A DNA stretch of 58,019 bases, counting the filler, from Sluysia triapertura (lineage: Eukaryota): NCBI GenBank assembly GCA_046118255.1. It is 4 parts of 4 records of this genome, joined end to end, with 100 filler letters (N's around TTAATTAATTAA, not from the genome) between each part and the next. Parts side by side here need not be neighbours in the genome. Positions count along the whole stretch, not along the records: positions 1 to 16,948 come from JBJNIA010194933.1; positions 17,049 to 29,815 come from JBJNIA010083366.1; positions 29,916 to 41,998 come from JBJNIA010141059.1; positions 42,099 to 58,019 come from JBJNIA010215142.1. One strand, given 5' to 3'. Positions 1,232-53,638 of the stretch are shown here, piece after piece. A model generated the notes under the pieces. That model was not told the origin of the DNA and made no database searches. It saw nothing but the letters and a program-made list of their open reading frames with translations. The position numbers and the translations under genes were made by a program. Every line of letters begins with the position of its first letter. Position 1 is the first letter of the stretch.

Positions 1232-2609
1232 TTACAGCTTCCATAAGGTCATAACAAATTCTACAAGTGTTTTAGAGTGACAGTGACTCTTTGGTTGTTT
1301 GTTGATATCTTTAATTTTTAATTTATTATCAAAGTAAATTTTATCTAAACTATTAAAACTAAGTTCTTTTATAACTTTACTTTTACAAATTTTATGAGAA
1401 AAAAATAGAAAAAGTTTAAGAAATATAAATTTATTATACATTAATATAACAAAGAATTTTAATTTTGATGTTTTTCTCGTACGCATGTCATGAAGTCTTT
1501 TCTTCGATTGAATTTCTAAATTAAAATAAAAGAATGAATTACAGTCGTTAAAAGGCAGGATCTCTTTATGTAGCATTGTGCTTCGTTTGAATCCATTCAG
1601 TTTCAGTTAGTTTATGAATTTTATCTCGATTATACGATATACTACTAGCTTTTTTATTTACTTCGATGATGTATAGATTTTCCTTCGTAAGATTGATTGT
1701 AGTTTTAACATAATTTTTGTCTAGAGATGAATTACTATAGGATTTATATAAACATTTCGTAAACACATCGACATTATTGTCGTACATATCGTCTTTGATT
1801 TGAATTGAAGGCTAAGTCTAAAATCGTCTAATTTCAGTAATTTATATAATACCAAATCATTAGTAGTGATGTCTAAAGTGATCTTAAAATGGTGATATAG
1901 AAATTCCAGGTCATGTGTTGGTGATATTGCATATTTAAACATTGATATAATCGTAACGATAGCTATCGGATTAAACAACTGTCCAAAATCTCATGTTTAA
2001 GAACAGACATACTGATTATCGGTACCATAACAGTATTTTTAAAATTGCAATTCGTCAAACTCCATTCCAAATTCTAACTTTAACAAATATGACGGGATGG
2101 ATTCCCAATAAGGGTAATCTTTACAAGTACTTGCCGATGATTGACTTTTTGAATGAATACCAAGACAACATTTGAAGAACATGAACCAACTTGAATCACT
2201 AACATCATAATATTAATCAGGCAATCATGCAGCTCCGGCTTATCTTTACTTTGTTGTAAAATCGAAACACATAGTAAATTAGGATCATCACCAGTTGTAG
2301 ATCCATGTTAGAAATCATCTGAAATATTTGTGGATTCTAAATCTAAAATTGATTATCGAAAAATCGACAGTGATCACAGTTGATTCTGCACTGATCAGTT
2401 GTATTAATTGTGTAAAAATCAGTTTGATCTTTAAAATTGGTGTAACAAGTATACGTAATAAATTGATTCATGAAATTGATTCTGACCACTTCTACTTGGA
2501 TAATTGCGCATGGAGTCTCTTTTGGTTTAATATTCGAAATAATTGATAGAATAAAAGAATCATACGATTTTATATACATTTTACGTAAACCATGCTTTTT
2601 TCTTAACAT
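1232..2609 (-). pseudogene. Fragmented intronless cargo ORF of cassette 1, unknown product
   Basis: Chain of minus-strand ORF pieces (2343-2609, 1721-1978, 1566-1787, 1232-1576) in shifting frames, starting 79 nt from hairpin 2; no recognisable domain. Confidence 0.45.
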
Positions 2610-3827
2610 TGTTAATAATTTTAAATGACTTTCTAAATTATAATTTTACTTTGAAAATTTTATGTACCTACTTGATGTGATTACTCCTCCAATCAGAAAG
2701 CGTAAAAATCCATGAACAGTACAACACTGATTGGACGACTAATATTAAAAATTAAAATTAGAGTAATTGAGTGATGAGCCACCATCAGTGCTGACATGGA
2801 TTTATAAACAGTAATCAACAATGTCAGTAATGGTGATGGTAGATACTGATTTGGATATTATGTAAAATTAATAAAGTTTAATATTAATAATAACAGTGAT
2901 GTTATTATTATTAATATTAAGTAAATACAAGGTATTTAAAAATACATAAATTCTTTCTAAATTTTACACGATCTTTCTTCACTTTTCTTTATATTTCTTG
3001 ACAGATTTTGAATCTAAAATTAAAAATGATTGAATTGAGTCTAATAACAATAATAATAAGAGAAACGATGTTATAGTTACTATTGTTATTAAACTGCATG
3101 AAATCTTGAATTCTTTAAAAACTGTACATGATCTTACTTGAAATCCTTTTAGTTTTCTAAACATATTCCAAAACTAAACATGTATTTAAAACTAAAGATC
3201 TTTAAGTAAAGGTTGGTTTAAGTGATTTTACATATATAATTGTCGTTTCAAGATAGCAGTTCTTATGTTATTCAGTAAAATGTAGAACGTTAGAATGAAT
3301 TTTTAGATTGTGATTAATGTTTTTGACTGAAAGTAATATTTGAATATTGGAAGATTGTGACCAAAAGATACATTGAGAAGAGTGTGGTTTAGTGGATGTG
3401 AAAAAGATAAATTATAGTCCAACTCTTATTATGTTCGAAAGGTGATTGTACAATGTTGCTAATGTGATTTGTTCTCTTTCTATTTTTAAGTGGTATAGTC
3501 TTTTGTGCTTTCGGGGATTATATGATGACAAATATTGAATTTAAAATGTTGTAATTGATTCGAAGGTGTCGAGTGGATACTTTCGAATGTGGTTGTAGTT
3601 TGATGGTTATGAATGTCGAGTAAAATTTTTTGATGAATCTATTGATGTAAATTGATGGTATTGGATGTAAATGTAGTTTGTATATTATGAGATTGTGGAT
3701 ATGAATTGACTTTGGCATGTAAACTGTTGTGGTGAGTGTAGAGAAGGTAAATATGTGAATGTTAAAATGTTAAAGGATTTTTATAAAATTTAATAATAGT
3801 GAAGGTTGACCACCACAGACTCCATAC
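1232..3827 (-). mobile_element. Double-hairpin cargo cassette, copy 1 (complete module plus decayed cargo ORF)
   Basis: Terminal motif GTGAAGGTTGACCACCACAGACTCCATAC 3799-3827; G/T-rich (+) body about 2980-3790, homologous to 52950-53610 and (reverse) 32300-32840; motif B 2941-2980; hairpin 1 2779-2797/2821-2840; hairpin 2 TCCAATCAG 2688-2696 / CTGATTGGA 2727-2735; cargo ATG at 2609. Confidence 0.7.
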
Positions 3828-4470: not shown

Positions 4471-5373
4471 GACTTCATAAAATGGAAATCAAAATGGGCA
4501 CCTCTCGCTTCACAGTGGTGTAGTTCGATATTTATGCTAGATATTATGCTAGAATAATATGTATGCTAGATATTATTCACATACTGTTTAATAATTTTAT
4601 TCATCATATTTAAATAACCTTTAAGTCTTAAAATCAGATTATTACTAATATAAATCATGTTTTGAAAATTGAACTTATACTTGTCAACAAGCATCTAAAG
4701 TATACGTTAAAATGATCATTACTTACTTTGTGATGAAGATTCTCAACTGCACGAGCATTTACTTTGATAAATTTCTTTATAATAGAATCTTAACTGAATT
4801 TTTATTAAATGAGCAATATCGAATTTCTAAGTGATACCTGTTAGTGTTTATTCTATCGTTATCTCATTCAAAATATTCTTAACTTACAATTTCACAATAT
4901 TAGAATCACAAATTACACATTAAATTATCACAGAAAACTTCAAAATTAATCCAAAACATTCAATTTCACAATCCTTTAACATTCAATCAGTAACGCCAAC
5001 GAAAGATATTAAATTCATTTGTCAAAACCATTTTTTAACATTCCTATCTCAAAAAAGAAATTCAAAAACTAATTTTTTTAAAGAACTTTAACAGAATTGT
5101 ATTAAGAAAATTTCATTGTTAAAAGAACAAAATTAGGTAAAGAAAGAAAGATTTAAATTGCAAGAAACAGAATAAAGTTTATGTGAAATTTTCAGTTTTA
5201 TTATTGTAATTATTATTTGATTTCGTTTATTTATATGTTGAGAAACGAAAGAACTAAATAAAAGAAAAGATCGTGTTATGAAGCATTAAAGTTTATGCAT
5301 TTAATTTTAATACAGTATATTTTATATAATTTCATTATTATTATCATTTATTAATATTTTATCACTTATTTTC

Positions 5374-5422
<49 letters not shown>

Positions 5423-5908
5423 TTATTTAACATTCAATTAAGACCAGCGTTATAAACTACAATATAATTATTACATTCTGTTACCAATCGACAGTAATCC
5501 AATTAAATTAATTGAGTATTTCGTATGAACTGTCGATTGATGACAGCTTTCAGGCGTGTGGTGTCATTTTGGCTTGTCACTATTCTCTAAATCAATTCTT
5601 TTTATCAGCATGGTAACACGCATACATGCTTACAACCTTATCTACGTTAATTGATTTGGCGTCCAATCAAGTCTATCTCTACATTGTAATTTTACTTATT
5701 GGGATTGGACGTCCAATCAACAATGATATCATAATATGGTTAATTAAAAATTAACAGATTTTAATGAAATTCTATTGGTTATTCTATTTATAACATTTTG
5801 TTAAATAAAGTGAAAAGCAACTGTCTTTATTATTAGTTTTAAAAATAACTTCTTTATATAAAAATTATAAAACCTTAATTTTAGTGTTTTGGCAATGATT
5901 TTTCGAAT

Positions 5909-6599
5909 ATGGCATTAATATTTCATTTGTTGAGTGTTGAAAACTTAAAAGGAAGATGTGACAAATTCATGAAAATTAATTTCAGTGACTTTGAAAATGC
6001 GAGATCATAATAGAATTGAATTTAATGAACAAATTGAATGGTCTATTGAACGAAAATTAGATGAATTTGATATTATAGAAATGAGGTTATATCAATATTG
6101 TAAATATATAAATAATAAAATGATTGGAAGTATTACTATTAGTTTACCAAAGCTAATAGTAGAACGCACAATTGTCTGTCACGAAAATCTCGCTGATTCA
6201 AATCATTCGGTCATTAAGATAACAACATCATTTGAAATTAAATATTATTCTCCATATAGTCAGGTTGGATACTTACTTACACAAGATTTTGATCAACCAA
6301 TAATAGATAATGATGATAATTGTATTTTAATTAGAGGTAAAGATGAAGTAGCACTAGCTGTTAATTACGCAGAGGAAGAAGATAATGGATCCATGTTATC
6401 AGCTGATAATCAAGACAAGTCTATTTTAATTGTAAATTTAAATTCGACAAGAAAAATGCTAAAATTATTAGTGATGGAACAACTGAGTATGTGGAGTGTT
6501 GGTAATAAATTTATTTTGACAAATAATTCGAGAACCGTTGGCAATGTGCCGAAAATAAAATTATGTTTGAAAGGATTGCCGTTTCATTTTACCGACTAA
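5909..6599 (+). pseudogene. OTOF: Intronless, frameshifted otoferlin/ferlin C2A-domain fragment fused to unrelated sequence
   Basis: ATG 5909 gives MALIFHLLSVENLKGRCDKFMKINFS; after a frameshift near 5990 it continues EFNEQIEWSIERKLDEFDIIEMRLYQYCKYINNKMIGSITISLPKLIVE...ENLADSNHSVIKITTSFEIKYYSPYSQVGY. This follows the otoferlin N-terminus ([26 protein letters not shown]...FDETFRW...LEIQVFNYSKVFSNKLIG...). The rest of ferlin is absent. Confidence 0.8.
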
Positions 6600-6768
6600 A
6601 ATTAGTATCATATATTTTTCAACAAGTATTTCCCGCCACATTGAGAAAACTTACATGAATATGATTAGTAATACAGGACAAAGATTTAGTTCGATTTTTT
6701 AAAAATATTTTAGGAATTCGTTAAAAACTATATCAATAAACAAATTCATCTCAAATCAAGAAAATTTT

Positions 6769-7164
6769 ATGCAATCAGATCATTACTATGCCCATTCCAG
6801 TCCAACGAGTCGGGGCGATGCGTCAAATCTGGATTCTCATGCAAGTACTACCACACTGTTGATCAAATTAATTATATTGGCACCAACATATTTGCAACGT
6901 ATACAAAATATTATAAAAACTATCCTTGATGTCGCCAAAATAAACAATCCAATATATAAGGAGAATCACAATGAAGTTGGCAATAAGACTCGATTCATTA
7001 AATGCTTGAATGGCATCAATTCTAAACTAATCATAATTTTTAATATTCAACTATTACTAAAATTTTATTTTTTTATTCGAGGAAGCAACGACGTGTTAGC
7101 ATTTCGCCCAATATTTCTAACTTTAGTACAATTTTTAGTTTTGATAAAAATAAATACATTTTAA
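6769..7164 (+). CDS. Hypothetical ORF, probable 3' part of the cassette 2 cargo
   Basis: 131-aa ATG ORF on the same strand downstream of the ferlin fragment; no recognised domain. Confidence 0.3.
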   Translation: MQSDHYYAHSSPTSRGDASNLDSHASTTTLLIKLIILAPTYLQRIQNIIKTILDVAKINNPIYKENHNEVGNKTRFIKCLNGINSKLIIIFNIQLLLKFYFFIRGSNDVLAFRPIFLTLVQFLVLIKINTF

Positions 7165-7399: not shown

Positions 7400-9208
7400 A
7401 ACAGTAGATACGTTGGTGAACTCACATTTAATTTAAATTTATTCTGCCCAAAATCTCTAAACTTTTCTCACGATAATATTAAAAAGATAAAATGAAACCA
7501 AAATATCTTAGTAATTTGATAAAATTACTCAAAGTATTACAATGATTTATGATAGATTTAAGATAAAAACAGAGTTCTTTTTAGCTGAAGAGTATTAAGA
7601 CATTAGATTTTCTTTGGATCTTAGAAATATTACATTATTTTAAATCTTGCTCATTTTGTAATAAAATGTTTAAAATATTACATTCAAATGGTTGTGTAAA
7701 AGTCGTAGATCTAGTTGAAATAGGATTCAATAGAAATTTTAGCAAATGGTCACTAGTGAAATATGAATATAGCAAAACATTACAGACGTTTTGTGAAAAT
7801 TGGTGAAATAGGCTATAAAATGTTTTACTTAACACTAAAATTTCATAAGTTAACATACGAAATTGGCAGACATAAATTTCAAATTTAGGTTTAAAGAAAT
7901 GGATTAAAGATTGGTCTAAAATTATTACGTCATTATTATAAAAGTTGTGGTTTAAAAACTCTAAAATGGTGACCATTAATGCAAATTTTTTACAAGTTTG
8001 CAAAATATTATTTTTTTTAATAATTTAAATACGAAATTACGCATTTCTTTAACATAAACATGGATCTTAAGGACCTTTACTTTATTAAAAATAAACTCAT
8101 AAACAAAACGATGAATTTCAACTGATTTATTACATGGCACAATAAATTTGATTATAAAAATTTTAGAATAAAAATCACAAATATAAACATATAAAATTTT
8201 ACGTATAATAAATGAAAAACTTACAGTTAAGATTGCTCCAACATCATAGATTTATTTGAGATTACACCAACGAGTAAAAATTTCAAGTTGGTATCATGCA
8301 TGACTTGATATTCCATATTTATGAATTTTTGATCATATTCTGTGAATAGGTCGAATAAACTATGAAAAATGATCTTTGCATATATTGTGTTATAGAAAAA
8401 ATTTCAGCAAAATCCAAACTAATTTTATGAAAGTTATATTCTGTGCGAATTTTAACATGGTTAAAATTAAATTCGATTCTGATTAATTTAGTTTTAATTT
8501 GAGGCAATAAATTAGGTTCAGTACAACTATTAATAGCTTTGAAATTAACATTAGCTTGTCGGTTCAAATTGTCATCAGAGTCTTTACACACATGTTGGTA
8601 TATGAACTTATTAAACGAATTTTGAGCGTAATATGAATCCGCGGGCATATTGTCAAAATGATTAATTAATGATCTATTACAATCTTGTTCCATATTTGAA
8701 GTAGTTTTAGAATTGTACTTCGAAAAAATTAGGCAGCCATTATCACCATTTTCAGAATCTATTTTTACTTATTGATTAAAAATTTTTCTTAAATAATATT
8801 AAAACATTAAATTTTTATTAAAATTATTATTTTAAATATTATCTTTTTGATTGGTATCAATGACAAATAATTTGATTGTTTTACTCTGAGTAGATGGCAA
8901 AAATTGCGATTTTTATCAATATGCATATCCAGAAAGTAATTACGGAAATTAATACAAAATGTGTTATGATTTTGATACGACATAGTTTCTGGTTGAATTA
9001 TGGACTTATAACTCATTGGATTATCTTCTAGTTGTATGTAAACTGATTTTTGACTGTCATTTTCGTTTCGAAAAGACTGATTATTTTTATTCCAATATTT
9101 TATTCTTGATTCTAGTGAAGGACACACCTTAACTGGCAAATGAACTCGAATTTTGTGATCCCTTAAATAATCGAATATACTTTGATTTTCCTTTCTCGAA
9201 GTCATCAT
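7400..9208 (-). pseudogene. Decayed multi-exon gene, weak SAC3/GANP-domain resemblance
   Basis: Minus-strand ORF pieces 8807-9208, 8319-8693 and 7635-8003 separated by short AT-rich intron-like gaps (GTAAG at about 8225, GTAAT at about 8040) and in-frame stops. The peptide HRFVYEFIFNKVKVLK near 8060-8115 recalls the SAC3 'YxFIxDRxRAI' helix. Family call is tentative. Confidence 0.3.
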
Positions 9209-10689
9209 ACGATCGATTTTCTTTTTGTCACAGATAAAATATTTTGAAAAAAACTAAGTGCTGAATTTGGTGCAGTTCCTGAGATAGTTATTACAATTAA
9301 TCAACAATTACTATATTCAAATGTTTTGAGAAAAAGTGAAAAAGTAAGGATAAGAGGTATTTCAGTGTTTTTAAAAGAAGTGTGCTATTTAAGAATTTAT
9401 GTTATGATATAGAACTTTATGTATTGTGCTGATTGCATTTAATGTATTTGATTGATTATTTACTTAATGTTTAACAATTGTTTAAGTGATTAATTTCTGA
9501 TTTAACTTTGAATTATTAGGTGAACCATCATAATTAAATTATTCCAAGTGCCTTTGAGTGCTTATTTTATATTACAACCATTATTATTCTCATTTTTATA
9601 TTTTTCATTATCATTATTATATTAAAACAATATTTTCTTCTATTTTATTCAGGTATTACAGAATGGATCTATAAAATATTAATAATTCTAATAATAATTA
9701 TGATTTTCTTATTTGGTGCTGCTAAATGTATTATCATAATAGTGAAACGGTTTGTTTAATGATAATAAATAAACATTATTAATAATCAGAGAAACAATAA
9801 AATGAAAAACATTAAAAAATTGATTTTCTTACACTTAATTAAAATTGTTTAAATTGTTTGTTTTTTAAACATTCTACACTTGATATAATAGATGCGCAAT
9901 AACTGCAGAAAATGAAAAACATTTCTTCAAGATCGAATATTTATCATCAAATGAAAGTACAACTAGTGTGATAAGGAAATTATTAATTAATTTTAATTTA
10001 ATTTTTATTAGTATGGCAATAATGCAAATGGTTTGTTAATTTTGAAATGATAAATTAATAATAATTTGTTTATTAATGTATTAAATGTTATTTTACATTA
10101 TGATTATTATTATTATTTTACTTTTATTTTAGCTTTATTATCATTATAAATTGAATAATATATAAAAATAATAATAATTGTACTAATTTGTACGAGCTGT
10201 TACTGTGTTTTCTAAGTTTGGTGACGCTAAAATTTAAAATAATTAGAGAAAACTTTTATTATGGAAAATGTTTGAAGAATTATAATAAAATTAATCATTC
10301 AGCACCTCCAAAGAATTCCAGTACGAGCACAGTTATTTTATTTTTAATACTCGTGGTCATAATTTGTGTAGTATTTAGCATTATTAAAAATAAGAGTAAA
10401 ATTAGAGAGATTTGGAACAAGTCCAAATTGATAAATTTCTTAATTATAAAATAATATATTTTTTCAATATTAAATTTCACATTAAAATAATTTTTTATTA
10501 ATTATAGTTATAGAACACGAAATTCTGAATGCAGAACAAATCGTAAACACAAAATTCACAAGTTATTATTTTGATTTTATGATGATTATGATGACGATAT
10601 TAATAATAATAATAATAACAATAATAATAATAATAATAATAATTATCATTATTATCATTATTTTAATTGCATTATCACATTTATTACCA

Positions 10690-11415
10690 TTTAACATTTT
10701 ACTTTTTCAGAATATATCAAAACCTTTTTTATATTTCAAAATATTTTAAATTCATAACTTTATAACATCCAAATCATATTTACATTCAAAATATTAAAGT
10801 CCATTTCAAATCTCATTTAAAACATTCTTATCTCACAATTCTACAACATTTGTGCCACAGTTTACATCTTAAATTATCATAGAAAACTTCAAAATTAATC
10901 CAAAACATTCAATTTCACAATCATTTAACATTTAATCAGTAACTCCGACGAAAAACATTAAATTTACAGCTCAAACCTTTTTTTAACATTATTATCACAA
11001 AAAGAACTTCTTAAATTAATTTTTTCCAAAGAACTTCAAAGAATTTTATTTACATATTAAGAAAATTTTAATTTTTAAAAGAATCAAGGTCATGTGAATA
11101 AAGCAAGGAATTCATGAATTTTAATTATATCTATTTTATTTTATTATAATTATTATTCTTGTTTATTTATTATCATTTTTATTATAATTATCATCAATAA
11201 TTATTTGCACTATATATTTTATTCACAATACAAATCACATTTCTGGTTACTACCGCTGCTTGCACTGTCAGTAATGACAGTTTTTCAGTTGATTCATATC
11301 ACCTACTGATATTAACAACAGTTGCTTTATATGTTGTCCTACTTCTCGTTATATCTGTTGTCAGTGTTCAATAATTAATACAACTAACTTCAATCAATAA
11401 GCTACTGCTGTTAAT
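10690..11415 (+). mobile_element. Cassette copy 3: body plus degenerate hairpins, no cargo of its own
   Basis: 10820-11080 aligns with 4870-5130 (e.g. AAATTATCA.AGAAAACTTCAAAATTAATCCAAAACATTCAATTTCACAATC); motif B variant 11081-11125; ATT-rich tract; CTGTCA-GTAA-TGACAG palindrome 11265-11280; no CCAAT hairpin. Confidence 0.6.
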
Positions 11416-11449: not shown

Positions 11450-13342
11450 TTAGTCATCTTCATTCTGCTTTATTATTATTATTATTATTATTATTGTGGG
11501 GGGTTGTGATGTTATTTGAATTTGTTGGCTATTATGTTTTAGAATTATAAAAGATTTTAAGGGCGTTAATTTATCCATAAAATAAAATTGCTGAAAAAGT
11601 TTGAATTTAAGAACATAGTATTCATCTATAAAGTAAATAGAATGCGGTAAATTAAACGTTGTAGTATTGCGTCGGTAAGGTTTTATGGACTTCAAAACAG
11701 CGTAAAATTCAACTTTAACTGACTCTGGTGTTGTATGGCAGACTATTTCATTGTCTGAGAGTTCAGTTCGAATTTTATAATTGTGATGTTCAGGTTTTCG
11801 TATTTTGTTATGATTAATTTCTTGAGCAGTCGCATTGGACTTTCGATTATAATATAACTTAGTATCTTTGTCCGTTTTACCGATGTTTAATTTATAGTCT
11901 AGAAGTATTTTTTTATTATTCGGTTTTATCTTAACGTAAATAACAACTAAATAAGAAGGTTGAAAATATTTAAGAACATAATTTATTAAAAATTTTAATT
12001 TATTTATATTGATCAAAGCGATGAACATTTTTGGTGGTAAACGCCGCTCTCGTCCGTGCCGGGATCCATCTTCGTTACAGCATGATAGAATAATCCTGTA
12101 ATAAATTATACAAGTATAATAATTATAAGGAGAATAGCAAATAAAATTTAATGTTAGATATTTACCTAGGCCATCTGCAAATTGATTTGAAACAAACATA
12201 TTTCCTCCGTCCAAGTTACCGTTGTTGAATTGGCTTCGTAGTAATTTCTTGGGAAAATTAGATTTATTTGTATAGGATTTATTTATCGATGTAAATTTCG
12301 AAATTATATTTTTACCACTACGGGAATCCCAATTTTCGTCATAGCTTTTAACAGCTTCGGAGATGAGCAATTGATCTAAGTAGAATTCAACTTCTGAATC
12401 CTTCAACCTTTCTAACTTAACAATCTTTCTTCTTACTTTTGTACTGAATAACGGTAATAACGTATTGGTAATAGCTTTCAGTAAATTTGTTGAATGAACA
12501 TTAAATACACTTTTCAAATTTTGCTTGATATCTCTATCAATTTCTCTATAGGAAACTTTAATTCTTATAACTTGGGAAGAATTGGCATAGACGTCTATAT
12601 TGTTGTTTTGACTCTCATGGTTAAATGCTAGCACATTTTGAATGCTTAATGTATTGAGATTTGCTATATTTCTACATGTTAAACGATCTTTGAGCACAAA
12701 TTCAATAATTGAATAATTATATATGTTATCGATTAATCTATCGAGTATACATGGCGTACTAATTAGAAAATTGAGCATCTTTTCACCACACTGAAGAGAG
12801 GGCATTTTGGTTACTTTTGGCACAAGGCTGCGTGTTACTGAATTTATGACATCATTGTTTGGGCAACGCATAGATTTGGTCTGATCAGAACCATCAAAGT
12901 TGTCATTACTATTTACAAGCGAAGTAGGTGACCTGAGAAAAGGATTAAACAATATTTTCAAATATTTATAATCTTCAGCTTGACAAAATGCTTCATAAAC
13001 ATTACTGACAATTGAGGAAAGAATTACTGATATAATATGTTGAAACCCAAAGTATGTTACTCCGTTAACTTGTGGTTTGGGTGTTTCAGCTAAAATTTAA
13101 AGTGTTGCTGTCAAGTTTTCATCATTGAGCAAAATTTCTAATAACGATTCATTAGATGTATGGACTTTCAGGATTTGATGGAAGCCATAAATGCTTGTTG
13201 TTAACTCACGTATTATTTGATAAACTTGGCGATAATCTAAAATCATTGAAAAACTTTCATCATTTGTACATGGAAAAAATGTTATTAAAATCTTCGATTC
13301 TGTTGATAAAACTGGCATTGATTTATAAATCCCATCAGACAT
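11450..13342 (-). CDS. About 630-codon intronless cargo ORF of cassette 4 with one in-frame TAA
   Basis: ORFs 13097-13342 and 11450-12961 are in the same frame; the intervening codons (ILAETPKPQVNGVTYFGFQHIISVILSSIVSNVYEAFCQAEDYKY) are open, so TAA 13097-13099 is the only lesion. No recognised domain. Confidence 0.6.
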
Positions 13343-13435
13343 TTCAATTGATAATTTAATAGGTGATTTTTATTAACAATTATAATTGTATTGTCTAGTT
13401 TTTTGTGTATACTAACTTGAGATGAGCAAATTGTG

Positions 13436-13528
13436 TCTAATTTTTAGCTCCAATGACGATTGTGATGTCTAACTTCAGCTCCAATGATAATTGCGATGCC
13501 TAATTTTAGCTCCATTGATAATTGTGTG
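13436..13528. repeat. Three tandem copies of a ~31-bp unit containing CCAAT/CCATT
   Basis: TCTAATTTTTAGCTCCAATGACGATTGTGATG / TCTAACTTCAGCTCCAATGATAATTGCGATG / CCTAATTTTAGCTCCATTGATAATTGTGTG. Confidence 0.9.
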
Positions 13529-13556: not shown

Positions 13557-13799
13557 TCACCCAATCAGAGTGCTGATGTTTTTCTTTTCTGATCTTTGTT
13601 GTTTAATCTCTGATTGGGTGACATTTGATATCAATGTGATGCAAAATGTGTGAATTGTTAAGACCCTGATTGTACACCATCATCATCAATGAGTTTTGGT
13701 TAAAAATAATTAAATGAAATGTCACAAGTGATGATGGTGACAACAAAATTTATTTACTAAAAATTTTGATAAAGATAGTTAAAATAATTAGCAATAATA

Positions 13800-13865
<66 letters not shown>
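13557..13865 (-). promoter_or_regulatory. Cassette 4 double-hairpin module
   Basis: Perfect 14-bp IR TCACCCAATCAGAG 13557-13570 / 13608-13621; perfect 11-bp IR CACCATCATCA 13675-13685 / 13729-13739; then (AAT)n. Body not evident beyond this. Confidence 0.75.
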
Positions 13866-14776: not shown

Positions 14777-15010
14777 GGGCTGATAGTTCAGTGAGAGGGC
14801 ACGATGTCGATTCCCGGTCAATCCATTTTTTGAGCCCACATATCGAATACCCTTCCGATGTTGAATTAAATGATTTACAAGATGTTTGAGGCCTTGTAAG
14901 TGCCATTTAGTACAATTCACTAATAATCTAAAGTTGCTAGACAGGGCTGTTATCTCAGTGGGTAGGTCATCGAACTGTGTAGCGAGAAGCCCGGGTTCGA
15001 TTCCTTTCGT
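14777..15010 (+). pseudogene. Two degenerate tRNA-like heads (tRNA pseudogene or SINE-like)
   Basis: GGGCTGATAGTTCAGTG...GTCGATTCCC (14777-14820, internally deleted) and GGGCTGTTATCTCAGTGGGTAG...GGTTCGATTCC (14944-15004) carry Pol III A- and B-box-like motifs; acceptor stems do not close. Confidence 0.55.
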
Positions 15011-41117: not shown

Positions 41118-41281
41118 GCCTTTTATTTCATTAGAAATTCTTAAAATTAAATTTCCTAAAATATGAATTAATAAAATGTCTAGAATGAAGCCACACAGGA
41201 ATGATTTAATTCGTTTGAATACTTTGGAAAAAAAATTTTATGAGTCTAATATTTAATTGTGTATTTTCCACTTTTATTTAG

Positions 41282-41341
41282 CCAATCAGAGTATAGTGGA
41301 GTTATTAGATGATATTTTCTGATGAATTATACTCTGATTGG
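41282..41341 (-). promoter_or_regulatory. Cassette 6 CCAAT hairpin
   Basis: Perfect 14-bp IR CCAATCAGAGTATA 41282-41295 / TATACTCTGATTGG 41328-41341; the rest of the module is not recognisable. Confidence 0.8.
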
Positions 41342-43394
41342 ATATTGATATGGAGAGAGCATAAAAAATCGACTTTAACCGCCAAGTAGAACCTAATGAA
41401 AATCAACCAATTAAAATCATTTCCATTTTAGTAACACCCAATTGAAATTTAAAAATACCAAATCAACTAATCATTTCTCCAAAATCATTAATAAAACAAT
41501 ATACAGGGGTTACTATTACCCTTATTTCAGTTTTGTAAACCTTTATTTCAGTTTCGCCATATTTCAATGCAAAACTACTTAGCAAAATTTAAATTTAAGG
41601 ATTAATAAAATTTAATAATTACAACAAAATTGAAATAAGGGCGGAAACCATGTAAAAGGATCGAGTCTATTAGTTTATTAGTGATTTAACAAGGACATAT
41701 TCATCTAATAAGGTCATGTTGTGTCTTTTATGCTTTTTATTTCGCAAAACCCAATAATTAAACAACTTCATAATCTCGATATAATTTTGTATAATCAAAA
41801 TATTTACATTTTAAAAATTATTCTTTATGGCAACAACAATATAAAACATTAAAACAAAATACAAATTATTCTTTATATAAAAATTTTAAATTACTCTCAA
41901 TAATCACGTAAATTACTGTTTAAAAACAAATTGAAAAACCAGGGGTGACACAACTTAAATCCTCGCACCCGATATTAATGCAAAATATACTCAATACANN
42001 NNNNNNNNNNNNNNNNNNNNNNNNNNNNNNNNNNNNNNNNNNTTAATTAATTAANNNNNNNNNNNNNNNNNNNNNNNNNNNNNNNNNNNNNNNNNNNNAA
42101 ACATTATTGAAAATAAATAATATTTAGATTGACAGACATTATTTTACGAATATTTTAATTACTGAACATTATTTTGTGAATAATTACTGGATATTATTTT
42201 TATAAAATCGGATGTTTATTATTTGATACTTATTTATAATTATTTATTAATTTCAACAAAGGAAATTTATATTTTATAACCTAACAAATAAAGCGAGTAT
42301 AAAAGGTAAAAAATTCTATTAAAATGACGCACAACAATTTTTAGAATTAAAAACGTTCAAGTTGCAGAAAATTTTGGATACAACGGGCGATTTAATTATT
42401 TGGATACGACTAATTCAACTTCCTTATTTTTGGTGTAAAGATTTGGAAAGTATATTTCAATTCAAAAAACGAAATTATCCTCAATTGGATTCTACTGCGT
42501 TCATTTGGCTCAGCTGCAAATTGGAATACAAATATATTTAAAATTCTCAGTAAGCTTTATTTGTTAGGATACCGACCATATTATTTGGTCTTAAAATACA
42601 CTTAACTTTTACATCATTATTTACAAAACCCAAAGGTACCCTCTGGGTAAAAATCAACATTAAAATCCAAATTCTATATTATTATTATAATTTGTTTTTG
42701 ATATTCTTTTCATTTGTGTTTTATAAATTTATACTACCTTTGTGTTATATTGTTAAAACTTTATAAATTTGTACTAACTTTGTTAATAATAAAACTTCGG
42801 AAACGAATTTTTAGTTTTTGTTAAATACTACAAAGTAAAATTTAGTTAAAGAAAAGAAATCGTAATAAAACAATAACTGTTTTTTGAAATTAAATTACAA
42901 CGCATTCACGAAATTTTTGGATAAGTTAAACATAAAGAGAAGGATTAACAGAAGACTGACTAAAATTTTTCTTTGAGTAAATTAATTAATATACTTTTTT
43001 AAATTGAAAAAGGTTATTAAGAGTCATAAAGATTAAAAAGAACGAAACATTAATATATAATTTTGAAAACACATAAGAATTAAAGTGATCCTTAAAGGTT
43101 ATAAAACGGTTCTTTATAAGATAGAAAATTATTAAATACAGGCTTACGCACCAGAAAAAGTCAAATAGTATACAAGAAGATAAAAGTCATAGTATTCTTG
43201 CACTAGTATTTTTCACAGCTTTAAAATCCTACGCACTCGTCCATTTTAGGTAAATCGATTGGCGTAGGCGAACCTAAAGTATAAATTAATAATTTATAAT
43301 TGTTCAAGAGTTAAGAAGAAAAAACCGAACAATATATAGCTTATTACAATTATTTGTACTTTTTTTTCAAATACGTTTTTGATTAAATACTAAC

Positions 43395-43503
43395 GCCATA
43401 AAGTACTCCGTCCGTTTTGACCATGATCACCGTTATAGCCATGCATTCCATCGTTACCATGTTTACCGTTAGCACCAGAAACATCAATAACAATAGCAGC
43501 AGG
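43395..43503 (-). CDS. Short exon with Gly-X-X repeat
   Basis: PAAIVIDVSGANGKHGNDGMHGYNGDHGQNGRSTLW bounded by TTTAG and GTTAGT. Confidence 0.5.
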
Positions 43504-46500
43504 CTAAATATTTATTTTAGTTATTAAATCATTTTGTAATAATAATATTAATAATAAAATGGCCAGTTAAAACCATGAAAAGCTTAGAATTCCAAAAATT
43601 GTTAACTGTAGAAACTAATTTAAAACCATAATTTATCAATATCACATAATACTATGTTATTTCAACACAATAATATAACTTTTAATCTCAATTTTAAACA
43701 CAATTTTTAATTCACATTTAACTAATTCACGCTTTCATCATTGCCTTTACAATTTTACACTTGCAATAATTTCCCCGAAAACAAAATTCTTATAAAATTA
43801 TTATTAAATTATTATTGTTATTAAATTACTTTCAAATTTTATTACTTATTTATATAAGTAATTGACTCATTTTTTTCTTGATTATAATTCAGTTCAAATT
43901 TGGTGAAAATCCTTTCATTGTTTCAAAAAATTTTATTGTTTGTTCAAAAGAAAATCTATGTAAAAATTAAGTATAATTCAAGAATTCACCAATCATGGAA
44001 TTTCTCAAATGCAATAAAACATTATCAGCCTATGGATGCTACTTATAGTAAAATGAATGAGTTTTTAGATGATGCAAGCAATACTTTCGATTAAATTTAT
44101 CAAAAATAAATTTCACAACTTTTAACGATTTTCCTCAGATATTAACCACAGTTTATTGCTTCTAAAACTTCGTGCAGTTACACCTATAGTTATAACAATA
44201 TTAAAAGACAATACGTCTGTTGATTGTACTCATTTCTTAGAAAGTGATGTTAAATAATTTCGCAATTCAAATGATAACAAGAAGTTGAGTTATTTGTATG
44301 ATGAATCTATAAATTGAATGAGTTAGAAAATAGCTTAGAGAGTGAATATAAAGCATAGTTGACCACTTATTTTTAATTCACTTGACAAACAAATTTTAAC
44401 AGTGTTGTCTCCTTTTTGTGAAGATAATTTCATCAAATTTTATAATTATAACATCGAAATAAAAGTAAAAAGCCCGAATTCGATAAAGTAATCAATCTGC
44501 TTAAAGAATAATTCAATAATTACTTTCGTAAGGTGCACTCTGTTAAAATTTCCAAGATAACATTTTCAAGTTTAAATGTTGCTACAATAACAACATTAAA
44601 TACACTTATTGTTTGAAAGAATAATTTGAATTTGAATTTAAAGCAAACATCAATAATATTTCAGTATCCAAACCACAAAATCCTATAAAGTGCCTTCCAT
44701 AGGGATATGAGTCATCTACAACAAGCGAACCATTGTTTTATTTTACAAAAGTGAACATTTAGTATAAAAAAATACAGACTGAATTTGTGATTAAATATTA
44801 ATTTATTTTGAATTGCATTTATTACTTAACATAAAATTAAACACCAAGACTAAATTTGGAATTATAAAGTTGAACTGTTGGATTGATGAAAAATAATGTT
44901 AGACAAATATATTTTAATTAATTATAAAATTGTTCCACAAATTAGTATTAACAAACAATACTACAGAAAAAATATGAATGTGTATGTGTATTTTTAATTA
45001 GAGTAGAAATATTTCAGATGACTAAAATTAATTATTATACAAAAATTTCATAATAGACTAGAAATTAAATATATAAAAGTACCACTATATAAATCAATTT
45101 GGTTAGAAAATATTAAATAACATAAAAATCACACAATATAGTTACTCTAACTATAAAAATCATATTTATGTACTATAAATAATATAATTTATTATTATTG
45201 TTATAATTAATATTCGTGATGATTATGGTCAAACTTTAAAATTTGCATACAGAAGTAAAACGAGTTTACCTAGTGACTTACGAAGAAGATGATGAAATAT
45301 GCAATTACTACAGCTTATAGTCAACTACAAATGGATGATGAATTACTATATTTTGTCAGTAAACTATATGGATGGTTAAGAACACTTTATTGACTAGGTT
45401 TTCCTTTAATTAAGCAAGCTTGCCGATTTTTAGGTAGTTAACGAGATGTTATAAAGAAAGAAAAAGATTACCATAGGAATTAAAAATTTAATGAAATCGC
45501 AAAACACTAAATAGGTAGTATTATATTTAATGATAAATAATGAGTTGTACCAAAACTGAATTATATATTTTTGACTATCCTTACTTTAGATTTATTATTA
45601 TACAAAAAATCATGATATTAATATAATATCTGATACAAATGCAGACTTTAGAATACAAGCATCATGCATTACCTTTATGGTAACTTAAACTTTAATTGAT
45701 AAACTTCAGACATTCGTACATTCACATAAAATGCTAATTTTTGTTTGAATATTTGCATAACAATTATAAAATTCCCTTTACATTATCATTATTACTATTA
45801 TTATTATTATTATTGTGAACATAGTACCCACACTCTCAACATTAGCATCTAATGCATTGTTGTACTCTGATGAAACGTTTGATTACGCTCGAAGGTTTGA
45901 AAAATGAAAGTCATTTTCAATTGAGATAATATAAAAATATGAAATCTAAATTTGTAAACATTAAACTTTGATTATTAGGTGAACAAAATCATTTTAAATT
46001 GAGATATAGTGTGGAATTAATAAAATGAAAAATAATAATAAACGGCTACATAAAATCTAATTGGATGAAATAAAATAATCATGAAGAAATATTATGAATG
46101 TCTATTAATAATTTCTATGTAAATAAGTGTGTATAAATCTAAAGTAGATAATAAATTACGCCTATGAATTTTTATTAATGTATACCGATTTCATTATTTG
46201 TAAATTAGTATGTGTAATCTAGTAAAGATAATAAATGGTTGTGTATTGAAAATAGAGTAACTAAATAAATAATAATAAAATTTTTCTATAAAGAATTAAT
46301 AATTAGTAGATGAAAAATAAATTTTATAAGCAAAAATAATTATTACAATCCGTGTCAAAGTTAAATAATAATGTTGTTGTAGATCAATATGACATAAATA
46401 TTGTATGTATAAAAATAACTGTAACAAATTTATATAAATGTGTAAAGTAATAACTAAATTTTTATATTATGGAATTTATAAAATGATTAACGATTTTGTC

Positions 46501-48703
46501 TGTATAAAAAGTCGAACACAATTTTTGATAAGTAAAAATCTAATATTTTTAAAAAGAAAGAACTCATTAGTTGGAATGCAATTATTCAGAAATCATTCAT
46601 TTGTTAGAAGATATTACGAAATCAAACAGACGTTATTCATTGCTAGATGAAGATTGATTAACCGAGCAATTCATCGAATATTAAAATTGAAGGTAAATTC
46701 TTCAACTTTTACACAGATAATAAATTTTAAATTATTGAATTAAATATATTATTTGCATGTTTATTGTTTTTAAAGTAACAAAATAAAATACATTGCTTGT
46801 TTATTTAATTTACTAAGCGGGAAAAGGGATTAAGGAGTGAAGTATAAGAAGTCGAGGTTACAATTTGTAGTGATAAACTAAGAAATTTCATCTCGAACAA
46901 CAAAGACGAATGTAGATCTCGTTCTCTGACATCAAACATTGTTCAATAAATTGCAATTTATAAGACTAAATATAAACTCTATTAACAGAAGAGGAATTTA
47001 ATCTACACGTGAGATTGATGAAAATATAATATCTAAAAACGGAGAGGTATATTATTACATTAGCTAAAATTATTTGCAATAAAGCCGAATTATTAGTAAT
47101 CGTAGAGGCAAGAGTACTTACATTAAAGTAAATTATAAATTAATATTATTATTATTATATTTTTATATTTAACATCAATATATTATACATAACAGTATTA
47201 TCACTATTACTATTATCACTTTCTTTTATTATTTTATTATTTTAAAAACACTTAATTTATTTTACATTTTAAAATTTTTTTCAATATTAGTCGTTAACTA
47301 AAAATTCTTCTTTATATTAAAATCAAAGTTTTCATTCCTGAATGAAGTTCAATCACCACGACTTCAAAAATACTACCCATATATTTCAAAACTTTAACGG
47401 CTAATTGATGAATATAAACGATTATAGCAAGTTACGTATTAATAAATTAATTAGCAATGCTAATAAATTTAGACAACTTAATGGATACCAATCTGTTTGA
47501 GAGTGATAGTATTTTATAGCGCTATATTTTATTTTTAAGCTTAGTTATTCCTTTGGTAAGAGAATGCAGAGATCTCAAACTAATAACTTCAAAAGTTTAA
47601 AATTAAAAATTCTAATTGTAAATTTAATTTGTTTAGTCTATTTGTACAAACTGAAAATATAAGATGAATTTCATTAACTTAGAAAGTTTTATTAATAATT
47701 AAAACAAATTATTAATTAAAAAAGTATGTAAAAGAAATAAGATGATTAGATTGAGACAATACATTATGTAAACATATCTTCATTTAAATATAATGAATTG
47801 GATGAAAAATCTAAAACAAAAAAGAATTCAATAAAAATATACATCAAGGGAAAAAGATTTTATAGATGTTACGTAGTACGAAAATGTTCGTTTTTAAAAA
47901 GTACATACATGCAAAAGATGTACTGAATTTCATATGTGATATACAATAGACTTAAGAGTACAAAAAACATCACGAGTCATATTAATACTTAATATTAATA
48001 GTCATCATCATCATAATAATTCGTATCTAAAATATTTTTTTGTAATAGTTTGTATATAATTTTATAATTTTACTTGAACGAATTCATAAGTTAACTTTAA
48101 AAATAAAATTAAATAAATTTTAATTTTTCAACAATCATATACTACTTACAATAATAAGTAAAATAATTTTATATAATGTGCTTTATATAAATATTGTATT
48201 TTGATTGGCTTATGAGAAATGTGATTCTATTTTAACCACTGGTAAGTTTTTATTTATTATATATTTAGTTTTAGTACATAATGAATTCTAAAACTCGTAC
48301 AAATTTGTGGTACGAAATATTTTATATGGCCTTTAAGTAAGTTTTATTATTTATATTATTATTTATATTAATAATATATAATTATTAATTATATTAATTA
48401 ATTGTTTATATTATTATTAGTTTAGAACAGCCCAAGCAGCGAGATCAACATTAATAGAGATTAAAAGTAAATATCAATTTCACATAAAATGTAAATTCAT
48501 ATTTATTATTAATCAATCACAAAACACATATCATTTCTATCTAAACTCAAATTGACCTTGTAAAAATTATTTTAAATATATTTGATAATGTATAAAATAT
48601 TTTTCGTTAATATTTGATATACTGTAGGATTGGGCAACCTAGTCTAATAGCAGTCTAGATAAAAACAACAAATACATATATTTCAATGTTTGCGCCACAT
48701 ATA

Positions 48704-49626
48704 TCACATATTTAGGGGGTAATACCTCTTACACCAATTTTGGGTGGATGTTTTCATGTAATGTTGAAAAGATTGAGATGAAGTTATAGTTGAGGGCGTT
48801 AAATTTATATTAATATTATAATGAGAATGTACTATTAATTTAGAATTGAAGTAAGTACATGAAGAATTTATTTCATGTCGTAGTAAAACGAGATATAATA
48901 ATTTTATAATTTGTTCAATATTCTTTTGATTAGAGATTTTATTAAAATTTAGGACCAGTGTTGTGTCCGAATTTCGATTATGAGCATCATTGATAATAGT
49001 AAATCTATGAACATATATTTGTTTATTTAACCTAAGAAATTTTATATAATAATTATTTATACATCTAATTTTGATTTTTAATTCATCGTAATTTAACAAA
49101 AAGATTTTAACTAAATTAAAATGAACTAAATAAAAAACATTAAAATCTATTATATACAACAGAATTTTATTTGTATTTGTGATCTCTTTGTAATTTCTGC
49201 ATTTGGCCGTTGTAATCACATCTAGAAAATAATTATATAAATGACTAAAATCATAATTTACAAAGTTTTTTAACAAATTAAATTTAGAAATCTTACGAGT
49301 TTCTAGAAAATTAGCATAGCCGTGAGTTCTAATGTGTTCTTCTGGATTTTGTACAAAATCTGCTCGTAGAATTATGTAATCATTGTTGCCAGTAATTGTT
49401 TTATACTTTAACATTCGAGCAAATACTATGATAATCGATAACTTTGTGCTTTTTACGGATTCCGAAACCGTTTCATCTGTTACGTTAATAGTTTTCTTAA
49501 ATAGATTTGTTGTTGCGCTTAAAATCATAAATCTTTTTTTGCTAAAACGTAAGATTGTCGTTACTTTTTTAATATGTACATGTACATTTGAATCTACTAA
49601 GATCGAATTCAGGAGTCGTAATTGTT

Positions 49627-49639
<13 letters not shown>
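48704..49639 (-). CDS. 311-aa intronless ORF, 3' part of the cassette 7 cargo
   Basis: Long open frame abutting and overlapping the end of the REEP fragment; ends NLTPST...YYPLNM. Confidence 0.55.
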
Positions 49640-50083
<444 letters not shown>

Positions 50084-51444
50084 GTTAAAAATTAAAAAGT
50101 GAGTACCAAAAATTCTACAATGCCAATTTTTCACCTCGTCCAATCAGAGTGTTCTAAGTATTAATTGTTTCATATTTTGATACATCTACTCTGATTGGGC
50201 GACGTTTCGTAATAGAGGAAAGACAGCTGGCGATCGACCAACAGCAGTGCTGACAGCTCAATGTTAATGTGAAATGGGCTGTCAGCACTGGTAGTGGTAG
50301 CAACCAGTGTTATCAGCTATTTTTAATTTAATTTATTTTAATTTTATTTACATTTAGGTACCTGGAAAAATGGCGATAAATCTAATAATGATAATAATAA
50401 TAACAATAATAAAAATGGTAAAGTTATTGTTATTATTATTATAAAAATAAAAATATAAACGCATAAATCTTATAAAAGCTTTTACATGAACTTTCTTTCT
50501 ATGCTTTATACTTCTAACATAAAATAAAAGTAAAAACAAAGAAATGTACTGGTTACTAAATGTATAATGTATGATCGTTAAATGTTGCTTCACAGTATGT
50601 TAATGAATATCTTTAAAGTTATCTGAATTTTATTTTGAAAATGTAAAATTGATTGAAGTTGTTAGTGAATTTAAGAATGTTGAAATAGTTTATTGAAATT
50701 TATTAGAGGGTTTATAGTTTGAAAACAAGATTTATGCATTAGAATTGATAGTTTAAAATATTTATTAAAAGATTGAAATATATTTGAGCTTTATTGATGA
50801 TTGCAAAATAAGTTTTAATGTTTATTATGGTGTTGTTGTGAATATTTGATTTTGCTGTATGTGTATATATGAAATGGTTTAAAGTTGATATGGTTGCTTA
50901 AGGATTTAGGTGTAGTTGACCTATGTTTCTAAGGTAATTGTTAACATTGTTTGCATGGTATTATGTTTGTGATTTGTGAAGTTTGTGTTGTGATTGTGAT
51001 TTATTTGATAAAGTATTTAGTGAATAAATGTTGTGGATTGTTTGAGTTGAGTGTAGAAGTTTGTTATATTAGAGATGATTAGAATAAAGTTGATTTGTTG
51101 GTATATATAAGGTAGTGAGGTGTTATGATCGTAAAATGTTGTTTTATGAGGTTTGTGATGTTGTGATTCTGAATTTAAAAGATATGACTGTTAGGGAAAT
51201 TGTATTTTGATGAACCTTGATTTATAGTTGTGATATTTAGGATTTTAATTGGGTTTAAATTTGGATTATAAATGTTGACCACTACAGACCACTACATATA
51301 CAAATTTAAATTATTTACAATCTAAAGATATTTATTTTTATTCTCTACATATACAACGTAATGAAATGATAATTAATAATTTTCAAAGTTTTGTATAATG
51401 TTACATTTAGTTCTGATAATTTCTTTACTGCAACTGGCTGTACC

Positions 51445-53638
51445 TCAGTAGGCTTCACTCTGGAATGATAATCTAAAAACATTAGAAAATAAAAATAGAG
51501 ATTTAGATAAACAAAATAAAATTTTACTATAAGTATCGTTGACTTTGTTCTGATAAAACTTGATAATCTTTAATCTTTCTGTAACACAAGGTATATCAGT
51601 ATGGAAAGCTTTTACTCGGCAATGAATACGTGTTTCAAATTTGGAATTTGTTGGTAACGTAATTAAGTAGTAAATGGTATCGTGAAAACAAGCATCAATG
51701 ATAAAATTTTGAACAAAATTAGCCAAGAGAATCGGAATACTTCGAATATCAACTATATCGATGACTTTATTATGTCGAAACCTTTTGCTCGATCTAACTG
51801 AATAAATCGAATCATGTAAATTTTTAGGGATTACACCCTTATAAATCATATATTTAATTGGAACCAATATAGACTCTGGCTTATTAAGTTTAGAATCTTC
51901 AATTACTAAAAATACTGGTGTTGCTAAACTGAGCTCTTTGAAAATTGTCGATAATGCGATGAGATATCTATCAAACGTTTTATTTGTAGTGGATACATTA
52001 CCAGATATTTTTGTGATCTATCGTTAATTGTATTCATTAATTTAATTTTTTCAATACTATTAAAGGTTTTGATCTATAACATAGGGTTATGCATAACTCT
52101 GAAATATTACTTGATAATGAGTATGACGAATTAACAGCAATGAAATAGATAATCTTTGGTTGTCGCCAATGTTCATTTACTAATGTCGACGCAATCATAA
52201 ATTCATCAATTTTATTCGGATAGGATATTATTAATAATTTCAATGTTATATAATCTTTAGAGAAGCAAACCGATAGATTACTGTGGTAGGACTAACAATT
52301 TGAGATTGATCATAGAGCAATTTTGATATTTGACTGGCTGTCATCAGGATCCTCTTTTTACTAAAATGAGAAAATTCAATTCCTAATCTTAACGATGGCG
52401 GTTTTTCATAAAAAATATCGCAATCACTTCCTTGAAATGAACGAGGAGCGCAAGCTAGTAATTCATTATTTGTTGAATATGGATAATTTGTGAATTGCAT
52501 TTCTGACTTAGACTTCAATATTTGATCTCCATAGTTAGATTGAAACATTTTAATTACAAAAAAATACTCAAAATGTGTGAGTATCTCTAATCATTAAAAA
52601 GATTTATTAAATAATTGTTGTTTTATTTTTAGAAATTTTCTGTTTAGTTTATGACCTGTGGTTAGTCATCCAATTAGGATTCTCTAGAGTATAGTTTAAT
52701 GAACTTCGTTCTGATTGGATGACAGTTATTAGGATAGAGCCTCAACAAATCATCAATGATCAGTGTTGACACAGTACTGATAACCGTGATGAAAAACGTC
52801 AACACTAGTCATGGTAGTAACAATTTTTACCGAGTTAAATCAAATTAATAAAATTTAAAGTAATAATAATAACAATAATATTATTATTAATATTATTCTT
52901 ATGTAAAAATATTAAAATGCATAAACTCTGTATTGTTGATTCTACACGATCTTCCTATTGTTTTCCTTAAATTTCTCAACATATTTAAAATTAATTGAAA
53001 TAGAGAATGATAAAATTAAATGCAATAAATTTAAGATGTGTTCGGAACTTAAGTTTCTGAGTTTAATTGCTTTAAATGAATTGATAAGTGCAGTTAACGT
53101 TTAAAGATATGATAATTGATTTAAGTCGTGAGATGAAATAAAGAATGTTAGAATGAGTTCTTAGATGTTGATTAAAGTCATAATTGAGAACATTTAAGTA
53201 TTGTAAGATTGTGGATAAAAGATCTTTTGAGAAGATTATGGTTTGGTGAATGTAAAAGGGCAACTACAATACAACTCTTGGTATATTTAAAATATTATTG
53301 TGCAGTGTTTATGATATTTGTTTATTTGTTGTTTTTATTGTTGTTGTCATTTAAGTTGCTAGTGGTGATGTTGTGTAAAATGAAGAATTCGAAAGTATTG
53401 AATGGATAATCTCGAATGTATTTGTTTGGTTATTATGAATGTTGAGTAACACGTTTTTGGTGGATTAGTTAGTGCAATTGGTAATATTGGGTGAAATTGT
53501 GGGCATGAATTAGTTTTAGAAGGTAAACTATTTTAGTAGGTATATAAGAGACAACCGTATGAATGTTAGAGTGTAAAAAAATTTAGTTTTTTAATAAAAT
53601 TTTAATGGCTGTGAAGGTTGGTCACCATACACCTCTAT
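51445..53638 (-). mobile_element. Double-hairpin cargo cassette, copy 8 (tandem with copy 7); fragmented cargo 51445-52548
   Basis: Terminal motif GTGAAGGTTGGTCACCATACACCTCTAT 53611-53638; body homologous to copy 1; motif B 52915-52956; IR ATGATCAGTGTTGAC 52756-52770 / GTCAACACTAGTCAT 52798-52812; IR GTCATCCAATTAG 52665-52677 / CTGATTGGATGAC 52711-52723; cargo ATG 52548 with pieces 52246-52548, 52037-52243, 51445-51867. Confidence 0.75.

Follow-up and report, generated by a model that had tools for sequence, protein, structure and literature searches.

A repeat family in Sluysia triapertura joins a shared leader with paired motifs to variable cargos, some containing host gene fragments

Gene capture by animal transposons is rare, with 370 Pack-TIRs in 100 genomes (PMC8277862), and the closest described systems each share part of their organisation with a family of eight cassettes, numbered c1 to c8 by order, in a stretch of 58,019 nt of the Sluysia triapertura assembly GCA_046118255.1 (the window, meaning the whole stretch analysed; 25% GC). 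The Pack-TIR Ssk-FB4 is, like this family, a non-autonomous DNA element holding a host gene piece at several sites, with the mover identified in neither, but it shows terminal inverted repeats (TIRs) of ~700 bp, target site duplications (TSDs) of 9-10 bp and the introns of its parent (PMC8277862), whereas no long TIR or TSD was found in the cassettes, which carry intronless scraps and have many different cargos in a fixed slot behind a paired-motif module. The bat Helitrons HelibatN3, N211 and N424 unite, as is likely here, a promoter and a retroposed messenger RNA (mRNA) in an amplified non-autonomous element (PMC4224331). Their retrogenes, however, are marked by poly(A) and TSDs, and they themselves end as Helitrons do; nothing of this is seen in the cassettes. 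Chimeric retrocopies mediated by long terminal repeat (LTR) elements share with this family fragments that are partial, poly(A)-less, multi-gene, mostly sense and re-amplified; there, however, LTRs flank the cargo on both sides (PMC5131818), and here there is no second LTR or primer site. Ginger2/Tdd elements have a TGTNR terminus and an AT-rich RTATAY target, which the apparent start of c7 fits, but also TIRs of 50-180 bp and a 4-bp TSD (PMC2836005), which were not found here, nor was a transposase. The CERP2/CELE2 germline promoters are built, as the cassettes are, on a non-autonomous element whose paired motifs keep a set spacing, but they are short transposable elements of the miniature inverted-repeat type (MITEs) co-opted beside host genes, with different motifs, and are not cargo carriers (PMC9757741). 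Drosophila telomeric retroelements also capture host fragments (PMC13534243), with no demonstrated link to this family. Searches of the literature at the level of listings, without supplements, gave no description of the family. What is present is a real, abundant gene-capturing repeat family; the initial annotation spoke of a candidate undescribed system, which goes too far, since capture of host fragments and retrocopies by transposable elements is already described (PMC4224331, PMC5131818, PMC8277862), although the ends of none of these classes were found in the family.

The cassettes belong to a repeat family with a shared leader, which is real, and occupy ~32% of the window. The leaders, compared within the window using nhmmer and leave-one-out profiles, are ~65-80% alike: c1 and c8 match at E 4.9e-29, c1 and c5 at E 5.3e-13, and c2 and c3 show 79.7% identity across 301 nt. 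The leave-one-out profiles retrieved six of the eight leaders at E<0.001 (c1 7.6e-23, c5 1.9e-15, c2 2.3e-15, c3 2e-7, c8 1.7e-6 and c4 7.2e-4); c7 is marginal (0.072), c6 (5.4) has only hairpin 2 in common with the family, and the top non-cassette match scores 0.2. Word counts for hairpin 2 were set against dinucleotide shuffles of the window (n=100). The word CCAATCAG occurs nine times, always in hairpin 2 (c1, c4, c6, c7 and c8), against a shuffle mean of 0.5 and maximum of 4; the strict inverted pair of the word occurs at six sites against 0.02 (maximum 1), and the relaxed inverted-pair pattern gives exactly seven sites in the window, one in each of c1, c2, c4, c5, c6, c7 and c8. The initial annotation described about eight loci with all or part of one ordered architecture; the homologous leaders and seven hairpin 2 sites bear this out in part, but the full leader including the terminal motif is found in four copies only (c1, c5, c7 and c8), and c3 has neither hairpin 2 nor cargo. 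The terminal motif that it named is matched at two sites (c1 and c7), loosely at c8 and c5, and is missing in c2 and c3, while its C/A-skewed body is confirmed by leader bodies in which the strand of the cargo has little G (G 3.4-6.6%, C 17-24%). The (ATT)n run is present in seven of eight leaders and is also frequent outside the cassettes. The start point is aligned across four leaders, and both orientations occur among the cassettes.

The full leader of c1 (2689-3827, minus strand) contains the terminal motif (3805-3820), the G-poor body, motif B (2940-2975), a short (ATT)n, hairpin 1 (~2780-2840) and hairpin 2 (2689-2734). In that of c7 (50140-51296, minus) the terminal word of 10 nt is duplicated, and the body, motif B, (ATT)n, hairpin 1 (~50223-50300) and hairpin 2 (50140-50198) are all present. 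That of c8 (52670-53640, minus), a cassette standing head-to-tail with c7, has hairpin 2 at 52670-52718. The leader of c5 (32220-33108, plus), with a T>C change in both arms of hairpin 2 (33063-33108), stands directly behind an extra G-poor body with motif B (31150-31700, plus). The c2 leader (4840-5708, plus), without terminal motif, contains the body, motif B (5267-5302), (ATT)n (5334-5420), hairpin 1 and hairpin 2 (5663-5708). The partial leader of c3 (10660-11415, plus) has body, (ATT)n and hairpin 1 and faces the end of c4, whose truncated leader (13561-13865, minus) lacks the body and shows (ATT)n (13793-13864), hairpin 1 and hairpin 2 (13561-13617). In c6 hairpin 2 (41282-41341, minus) is the only recognisable part. 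Several other origins of the leader were discarded: derivation from a short interspersed nuclear element (SINE) or from the 3' end of a long interspersed nuclear element (LINE), as the LINE 3' region scores z<=2.2 against the eight leader regions, with no transfer RNA (tRNA) and no Rfam match; decayed coding DNA, as mismatch spacing modulo 3 is flat (294/300/309) and 6/18 and 0/7 gaps are multiples of 3; and a single foldback element with c3 and c4 for its arms, as the hairpins and bodies of the two do not match.

The arm spans of hairpin 2 are 46, 46, 46, 49 or 57, 59, 60 nt in the seven copies. Arms agree within a copy at 9.6 of 16 variable positions and between copies at 7.9, a result reached by 88 of 5040 permutations, and double-sided changes affect five of 13 predicted pairs, including the core T>C of c5. 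The folding energies of the hairpins are better than in shuffles equally on both strands, and would-be G-T mismatches occur on both strands with neither favoured; all this fits a strand-specific RNA less well than symmetric DNA sites or a cruciform in which the arms were homogenised or have stayed paired. The paired motifs likely act as a promoter, a role predicted from the CCAAT words and from the two span classes (46-49 and 57-60 nt), which are about one helical turn apart, as would suit a protein that binds DNA. In planarians, promoters show an enrichment of CCAAT boxes (PMC10558129), and paired motifs inside MITEs work as promoters in Caenorhabditis (PMC9757741).

The cargos are patchworks, not intact genes. 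Stops or frame changes interrupt six of seven, and the first plausible ATG is 57-289 nt downstream of hairpin 2, a wider range than the 57-215 nt first reported. The window shows three stop-free frames longer than 300 aa (548, 473 and 333 aa), all of them cassette cargos, and the longest frames in 10 shuffles reach 99-133 aa; the earlier count of three such open reading frames (ORFs), all in cassettes, holds for stop-free frames, but only two (473 and 433 aa) exceed 300 aa when counted from ATG. Cargos are mutually unrelated within the window apart from one weak c6-c7 match (blastp E 0.036), so the claim that each copy has a different cargo stands for the window, but the c7 cargo has many copies elsewhere. 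Host gene fragments are found in three of seven cargos (c2, c4 and c7), all partial, sense to the leader and without introns, and none of the three carries poly(A); none of 21 antisense frames matches Pfam at E<=0.01. The c2 cargo contains an ORF of 200 aa (5997-6599, plus) with an otoferlin C2A fragment (~6015-6251, E 2.3e-11) and a likely exon (6714-6854, plus) behind an acceptor at 6713, with a C-x9-C-x6-C-x3-H finger (6789-6854; zf-CCCH_UNK E 0.014) that is the only 4/4 match to the pattern in six frames. Three donor-acceptor pairs would splice this exon in frame without stops, and c2, judged from its sequence, may be a spliced chimera; the coding regions were initially called intronless, which agrees with the identified fragments but is unproven for c2 with its host-like acceptor. 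The finger is missing from the other six cargos and its exon has no significant match to them; a candidate finger in c1 was rejected, with a pattern match of only 2/4 and no significant similarity to c2. The c4 cargo (11450-13369, minus) runs in one frame that a single stop divides into 90 + 548 aa, and contains an ARHGAP1 BCH/CRAL-TRIO fragment (12284-12556) at E 1.4e-5, or E 9.8e-22 using the profile of its relatives; all 23 matches of one search fall on the ARHGAP1 BCH stretch, the ESM Atlas offered CRAL-TRIO leads for c4 with values below 0.9, and further protein searches with c4 and c2 gave no relative. The c7 cargo shows a REEP5/DP1 fragment (49675-50071, minus; TB2_DP1_HVA22 E 7.2e-21), intronless, with a deletion and frame change and an in-frame stop, whose closest match is 68%, with nemerteans and an annelid at 56-58%, which places the host among animals, probably spiralians, followed by a second part (48704-49705, minus) with an open frame of 333 aa and no relative. 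No relative was found for the cargos of c1 (1232-2645, minus), split over several frames, c5 (33406-34511, plus), broken, and c8 (51445-52590, minus), broken and ending 150 nt before the c7 leader, nor for that of c6 (39816-41237, minus), an open frame of 473 aa (433 from ATG) without usable match in the ESM Atlas. A supposed resemblance of the c8 cargo to poly(A) polymerase was dropped after protein searches gave no such match. An altered genetic code or editing as the cause of the broken frames was also rejected: stops of all three kinds and frame shifts occur, and the differences in an independent sequencing run (X1) are plain transitions both ways. We infer that the host scraps arrived via RNA, because no introns are found across 0.3-1.6 kb, while the exons of a host gene at 24990-26210 (plus), which by its motifs we take to be a PPM1A/B-like phosphatase, are ~150-370 nt long, with introns of ~32-170 nt.

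The c7 chimera is multi-copy and diverged, as shown by the number and divergence of the pieces from X1. On 48430-50318, the stretch matched, 503 pieces are found: 21 at 99% identity or more, 79 at 95-99%, 199 at 90-95% and 204 under 90%. Summed depth, which is not copy number, stays at 2-74 in the five bins of the flanks, is 384-2527 across the cargo (48745-50004) and climbs to 30761 in the bin of hairpin 1. Its jump from 46 to 2527 at 48745-48807 marks an abrupt far edge of the c7 unit, placed at 48745-48757. Two further runs (X2 and X3), of small share, gave nothing but short pieces of low depth and were left out of the evidence. One loose end joins the pre-ATG leader straight to 49963, a deletion variant, and no joints are listed for the stretch, which included one end only. 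The differences from c7 are a small, selected sample (40 of 244 listed, 35 in coding parts used), in which 5/24 are synonymous in the 333-aa frame and 2/12 in the REEP5 frame and none creates a stop; as far as this sample goes, the coding parts of c7 evolve near neutral, without amino-acid constraint. Part of c4 is present in three sequencing runs, one with 54% of c4 words, none recorded as RNA.

The family is very probably a mobile element of some class. Host fragments in three of seven cargos and the multi-copy c7 chimera with its abrupt edge agree with the non-autonomous gene-capturing element proposed initially. We consider it likely, with a probability of about 0.5, that the family is a non-autonomous DNA transposon-like (cut-and-paste-like) element with promoter-like paired motifs and a slot of host-mRNA fragments, whose chimeras are copied whole by an enzyme encoded elsewhere. 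Under such a mechanism, the paired motifs before the slot would drive transcription, the slot behind the leader would be filled with fragments copied from host mRNAs, whole units of leader and cargo would then be copied as DNA, and the moving enzyme would be encoded elsewhere in the genome. Copying at the DNA level is suggested because an RNA copy would retain neither the leader, which would lie upstream of its start site, nor what is probably an intron in c2. From the ends of one copy only, we lean toward cut-and-paste movement, the element having TG...CA ends that are very short and imperfect: the far edge of the multi-copy c7 unit (48745-48768) shows, at the depth step, a 12-nt imperfect inverted copy (9/12, TGT...ACA; p ~0.02) of the leader start. 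The start of c7 is TGTAG after GTATA, which fits the TGTNR-after-RTATA pattern of Ginger2; TGTGG in c1 also fits TGTNR, while TGTAT in c8 and the start of c5 do not, the exact first base being uncertain. An 11-nt far-end word common to c6 and c7 is not significant against shuffles.

Several observations weigh against this reading. The 12-nt match of c7 was chosen post hoc, another match of 9/12 is found within the cargo, ~350 nt in, and no inverted match ending in ACA is seen in c1, c5 or c8; no TIRs of at least 40 bp were found in the cassettes tested. The flank of c7 reads TATA next to the leader and, at the far edge, TGAA, most X1 contigs differing at one of these letters, and no transposase, empty site or exact target duplication was found in the sequence analysed. 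No far-end block is common to the seven cassettes (z<=1.7 under strict scoring; three pairs reach z 3.4-4.5 under looser scoring). Depth is only 139-304 over 50005-50193, so that leader and cargo are only presumably linked in the other copies. For four of seven cargos (c1, c5, c6 and c8) no source was found, and no intron-bearing parent gene is found among the X1 pieces or joints on 48430-50318, so that intron loss is presumed.

A rolling-circle element of Helitron or Helentron type with a fixed start, in which the hairpins would be bypassed terminators or a captured promoter and retrocopies landed behind and were then amplified as in bat Helitrons, is possible although unlikely. One fixed end with variable far ends, the microsatellite, which as (ATT)n is of the internal kind seen in Helentrons, HINE and DINE-1, the hairpins and the head-to-tail neighbours (c8 to c7, the extra body to c5) agree with it, but the hairpins sit mid-unit. 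Helitrons begin with 5' TC after A and end in a 3' hairpin followed by CTRR and then T; TC does precede the terminal motif in c1 and c7, but after G and not A, and CTRR-T stands within 40 nt of hairpin 2 in 0/7, the true far end being located for one copy only. HINE/DINE-1 elements have subterminal inverted repeats of 12-15 bp, a 3' palindrome and T-rich ends (PMC4067079), while here there are no such repeats or ends, no inverted partner of the terminal motif turned up with 3 mismatches allowed, and the starts are not T-flanked; bat Helitrons do amplify captured promoters and nested retrogenes (PMC4224331). Cryptons, whose ends are TATGG (PMC3212892), were rejected, as this word is in c1 and c8 only and no direct repeat is found at the far ends. 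We regard as improbable that the cassettes are remnants of an LTR-type retroelement, in which the leader would be the 5' LTR and reverse transcription would have brought in the cargo by a switch to host mRNAs. The TGT start of c1, c7 and c8 would suit it, and all three identified fragments are, as in PMC5131818, partial at both ends, poly(A)-less, sense and intron-free, the last by presumed loss, within chimeric, re-amplified cargos. That mechanism, however, requires two LTRs, and none of the seven far ends resembles any of the seven leader starts, in either orientation, beyond low complexity; no conserved CA-TGG primer site is found downstream of hairpin 2, no gag/pol remnants are found in 24 sense frames, and c2 seems to retain an intron.

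About as improbable is a host multigene family, in which a gene for a CCCH finger, provided with a promoter of its own, would multiply through ordinary duplication, gain retrocopies and mostly die, with nothing self-mobile. In its favour are the intact finger that c2 has behind its acceptor, the length of three open frames, which is well beyond chance, and the CCAAT boxes of planarian promoters (PMC10558129), but the finger is in one of seven cargos only, its exon has no significant match in the others, and the aligned start in four leaders, abrupt far edge, very high hairpin-1 depth, both orientations and lack of amino-acid constraint point away from it; the broken frames and unconstrained c7 also weaken the effector family first suggested. 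The initial annotation further offered endogenised segments of a multipartite virus or a minicircle replicon with a common region, which now appears very improbable. Hairpins kept by compensatory change and the extreme strand skew do recall single-stranded replication, but the identified cargos are host housekeeping fragments, no viral relatives were found for the c6 and c7 frames, 0/14 proteins match PHROGs, pattern scans gave one and zero viral loci, the one unrelated, the leaders are only ~65-80% alike and not a near-identical common region, and X1 shows no joints, though the stretch covered one end only. The pattern scan of metagenomes for the paired word gave nine loci, of which 0/9 match the leader profile at E<=1. 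It is also unlikely that the cassettes are an undescribed mobile expression cassette class, in which dedicated machinery would write host mRNA pieces, always sense, into one fixed slot that follows a promoter of twin palindromes, each chimera would be amplified to tens of copies and kept translatable despite amino-acid drift, and a third of this DNA would be a factory for new chimeric genes whose ends resemble those of no known transposon class. The cassettes fill about a third of the window, yet show the ends of neither Helitrons, Helentrons, LTR elements nor long-TIR transposons; if their ends and mover were found, they would represent either a new family of non-autonomous elements, in which capture at the RNA level is unusually heavy, or an element class that is itself new. 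They also make it possible to test whether it is for the benefit of the element that long open frames free of amino-acid constraint are retained.

Other tracts of the window resemble parts of the cassettes. G-poor tracts at 31150-31600, 43550-43900 and 47150-47400 are possibly more decayed family copies. The regions 43400-44800 and 47150-47500 (both plus) show a G-poor tract, then DNA rich in (ATT) and one CCAATC word; missed by the profile, they may be older cassettes, and decayed coding-like DNA comes after the first tract, where a cullin-like cargo at 43950-44700 was proposed and rejected for want of a match. Downstream of the c6 cargo and on the same strand, 39016-39850 contains a G-poor tract, an (ATT)-like run and a 79-aa frame; the c4 and c7 cargos also end in short G-poor tracts. 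Between hairpin 2 and the cargo of c4, a 31-nt unit is repeated three times in tandem (13420-13520, minus). The region 7635-9253 (minus) shows three or four unassigned open frames of 113-149 aa, which lie downstream of a G-poor tract (9300-9500), and may be a host gene or another decayed cassette.

Further features were seen outside the cassettes. Decayed LINE pieces in both orientations occupy 17900-23100, including a reverse transcriptase-like frame (18959-19228, minus) that ends in an (ATT)n tail (18342-18399) and an endonuclease-like frame (20467-20877, minus; Pfam Exo_endo_phos_2 E 9e-4). An intronless ORF of 117 aa (15601-15954, minus) has two CHHC-like fingers (zf-U11-48K E 0.083) and presumably resembles Gtsf1/Asterix, a factor of the PIWI-interacting RNA (piRNA) pathway. 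Two 65-nt repeats, 82% alike, in 14720-14990 are each followed by a GTTCGA-type word and are possible remnants of tRNA-derived SINEs. A MITE-like 400-nt element forms an inverted pair (23195-23598 and 24291-24680), 86% alike, with GGTCACC/GGTGACC ends. Direct repeat pairs are found at 35939-36134 and 38634-38824 (95%), 56467-56622 and 57857-58013 (78%), and 26657-26749 and 27620-27716 (82%). One short intron of the phosphatase gene seems to begin with a non-GT donor. Three spacers of 100 nt (16949-17048, 29816-29915 and 41999-42098) have stops in all frames, and two of the three come after (ATT)n runs. Four of the metagenome loci (L003, L005, L007 and L009), unrelated to the family, show long palindromes with hammerhead-like words around their matches, which are possibly inverted Penelope-type repeats.

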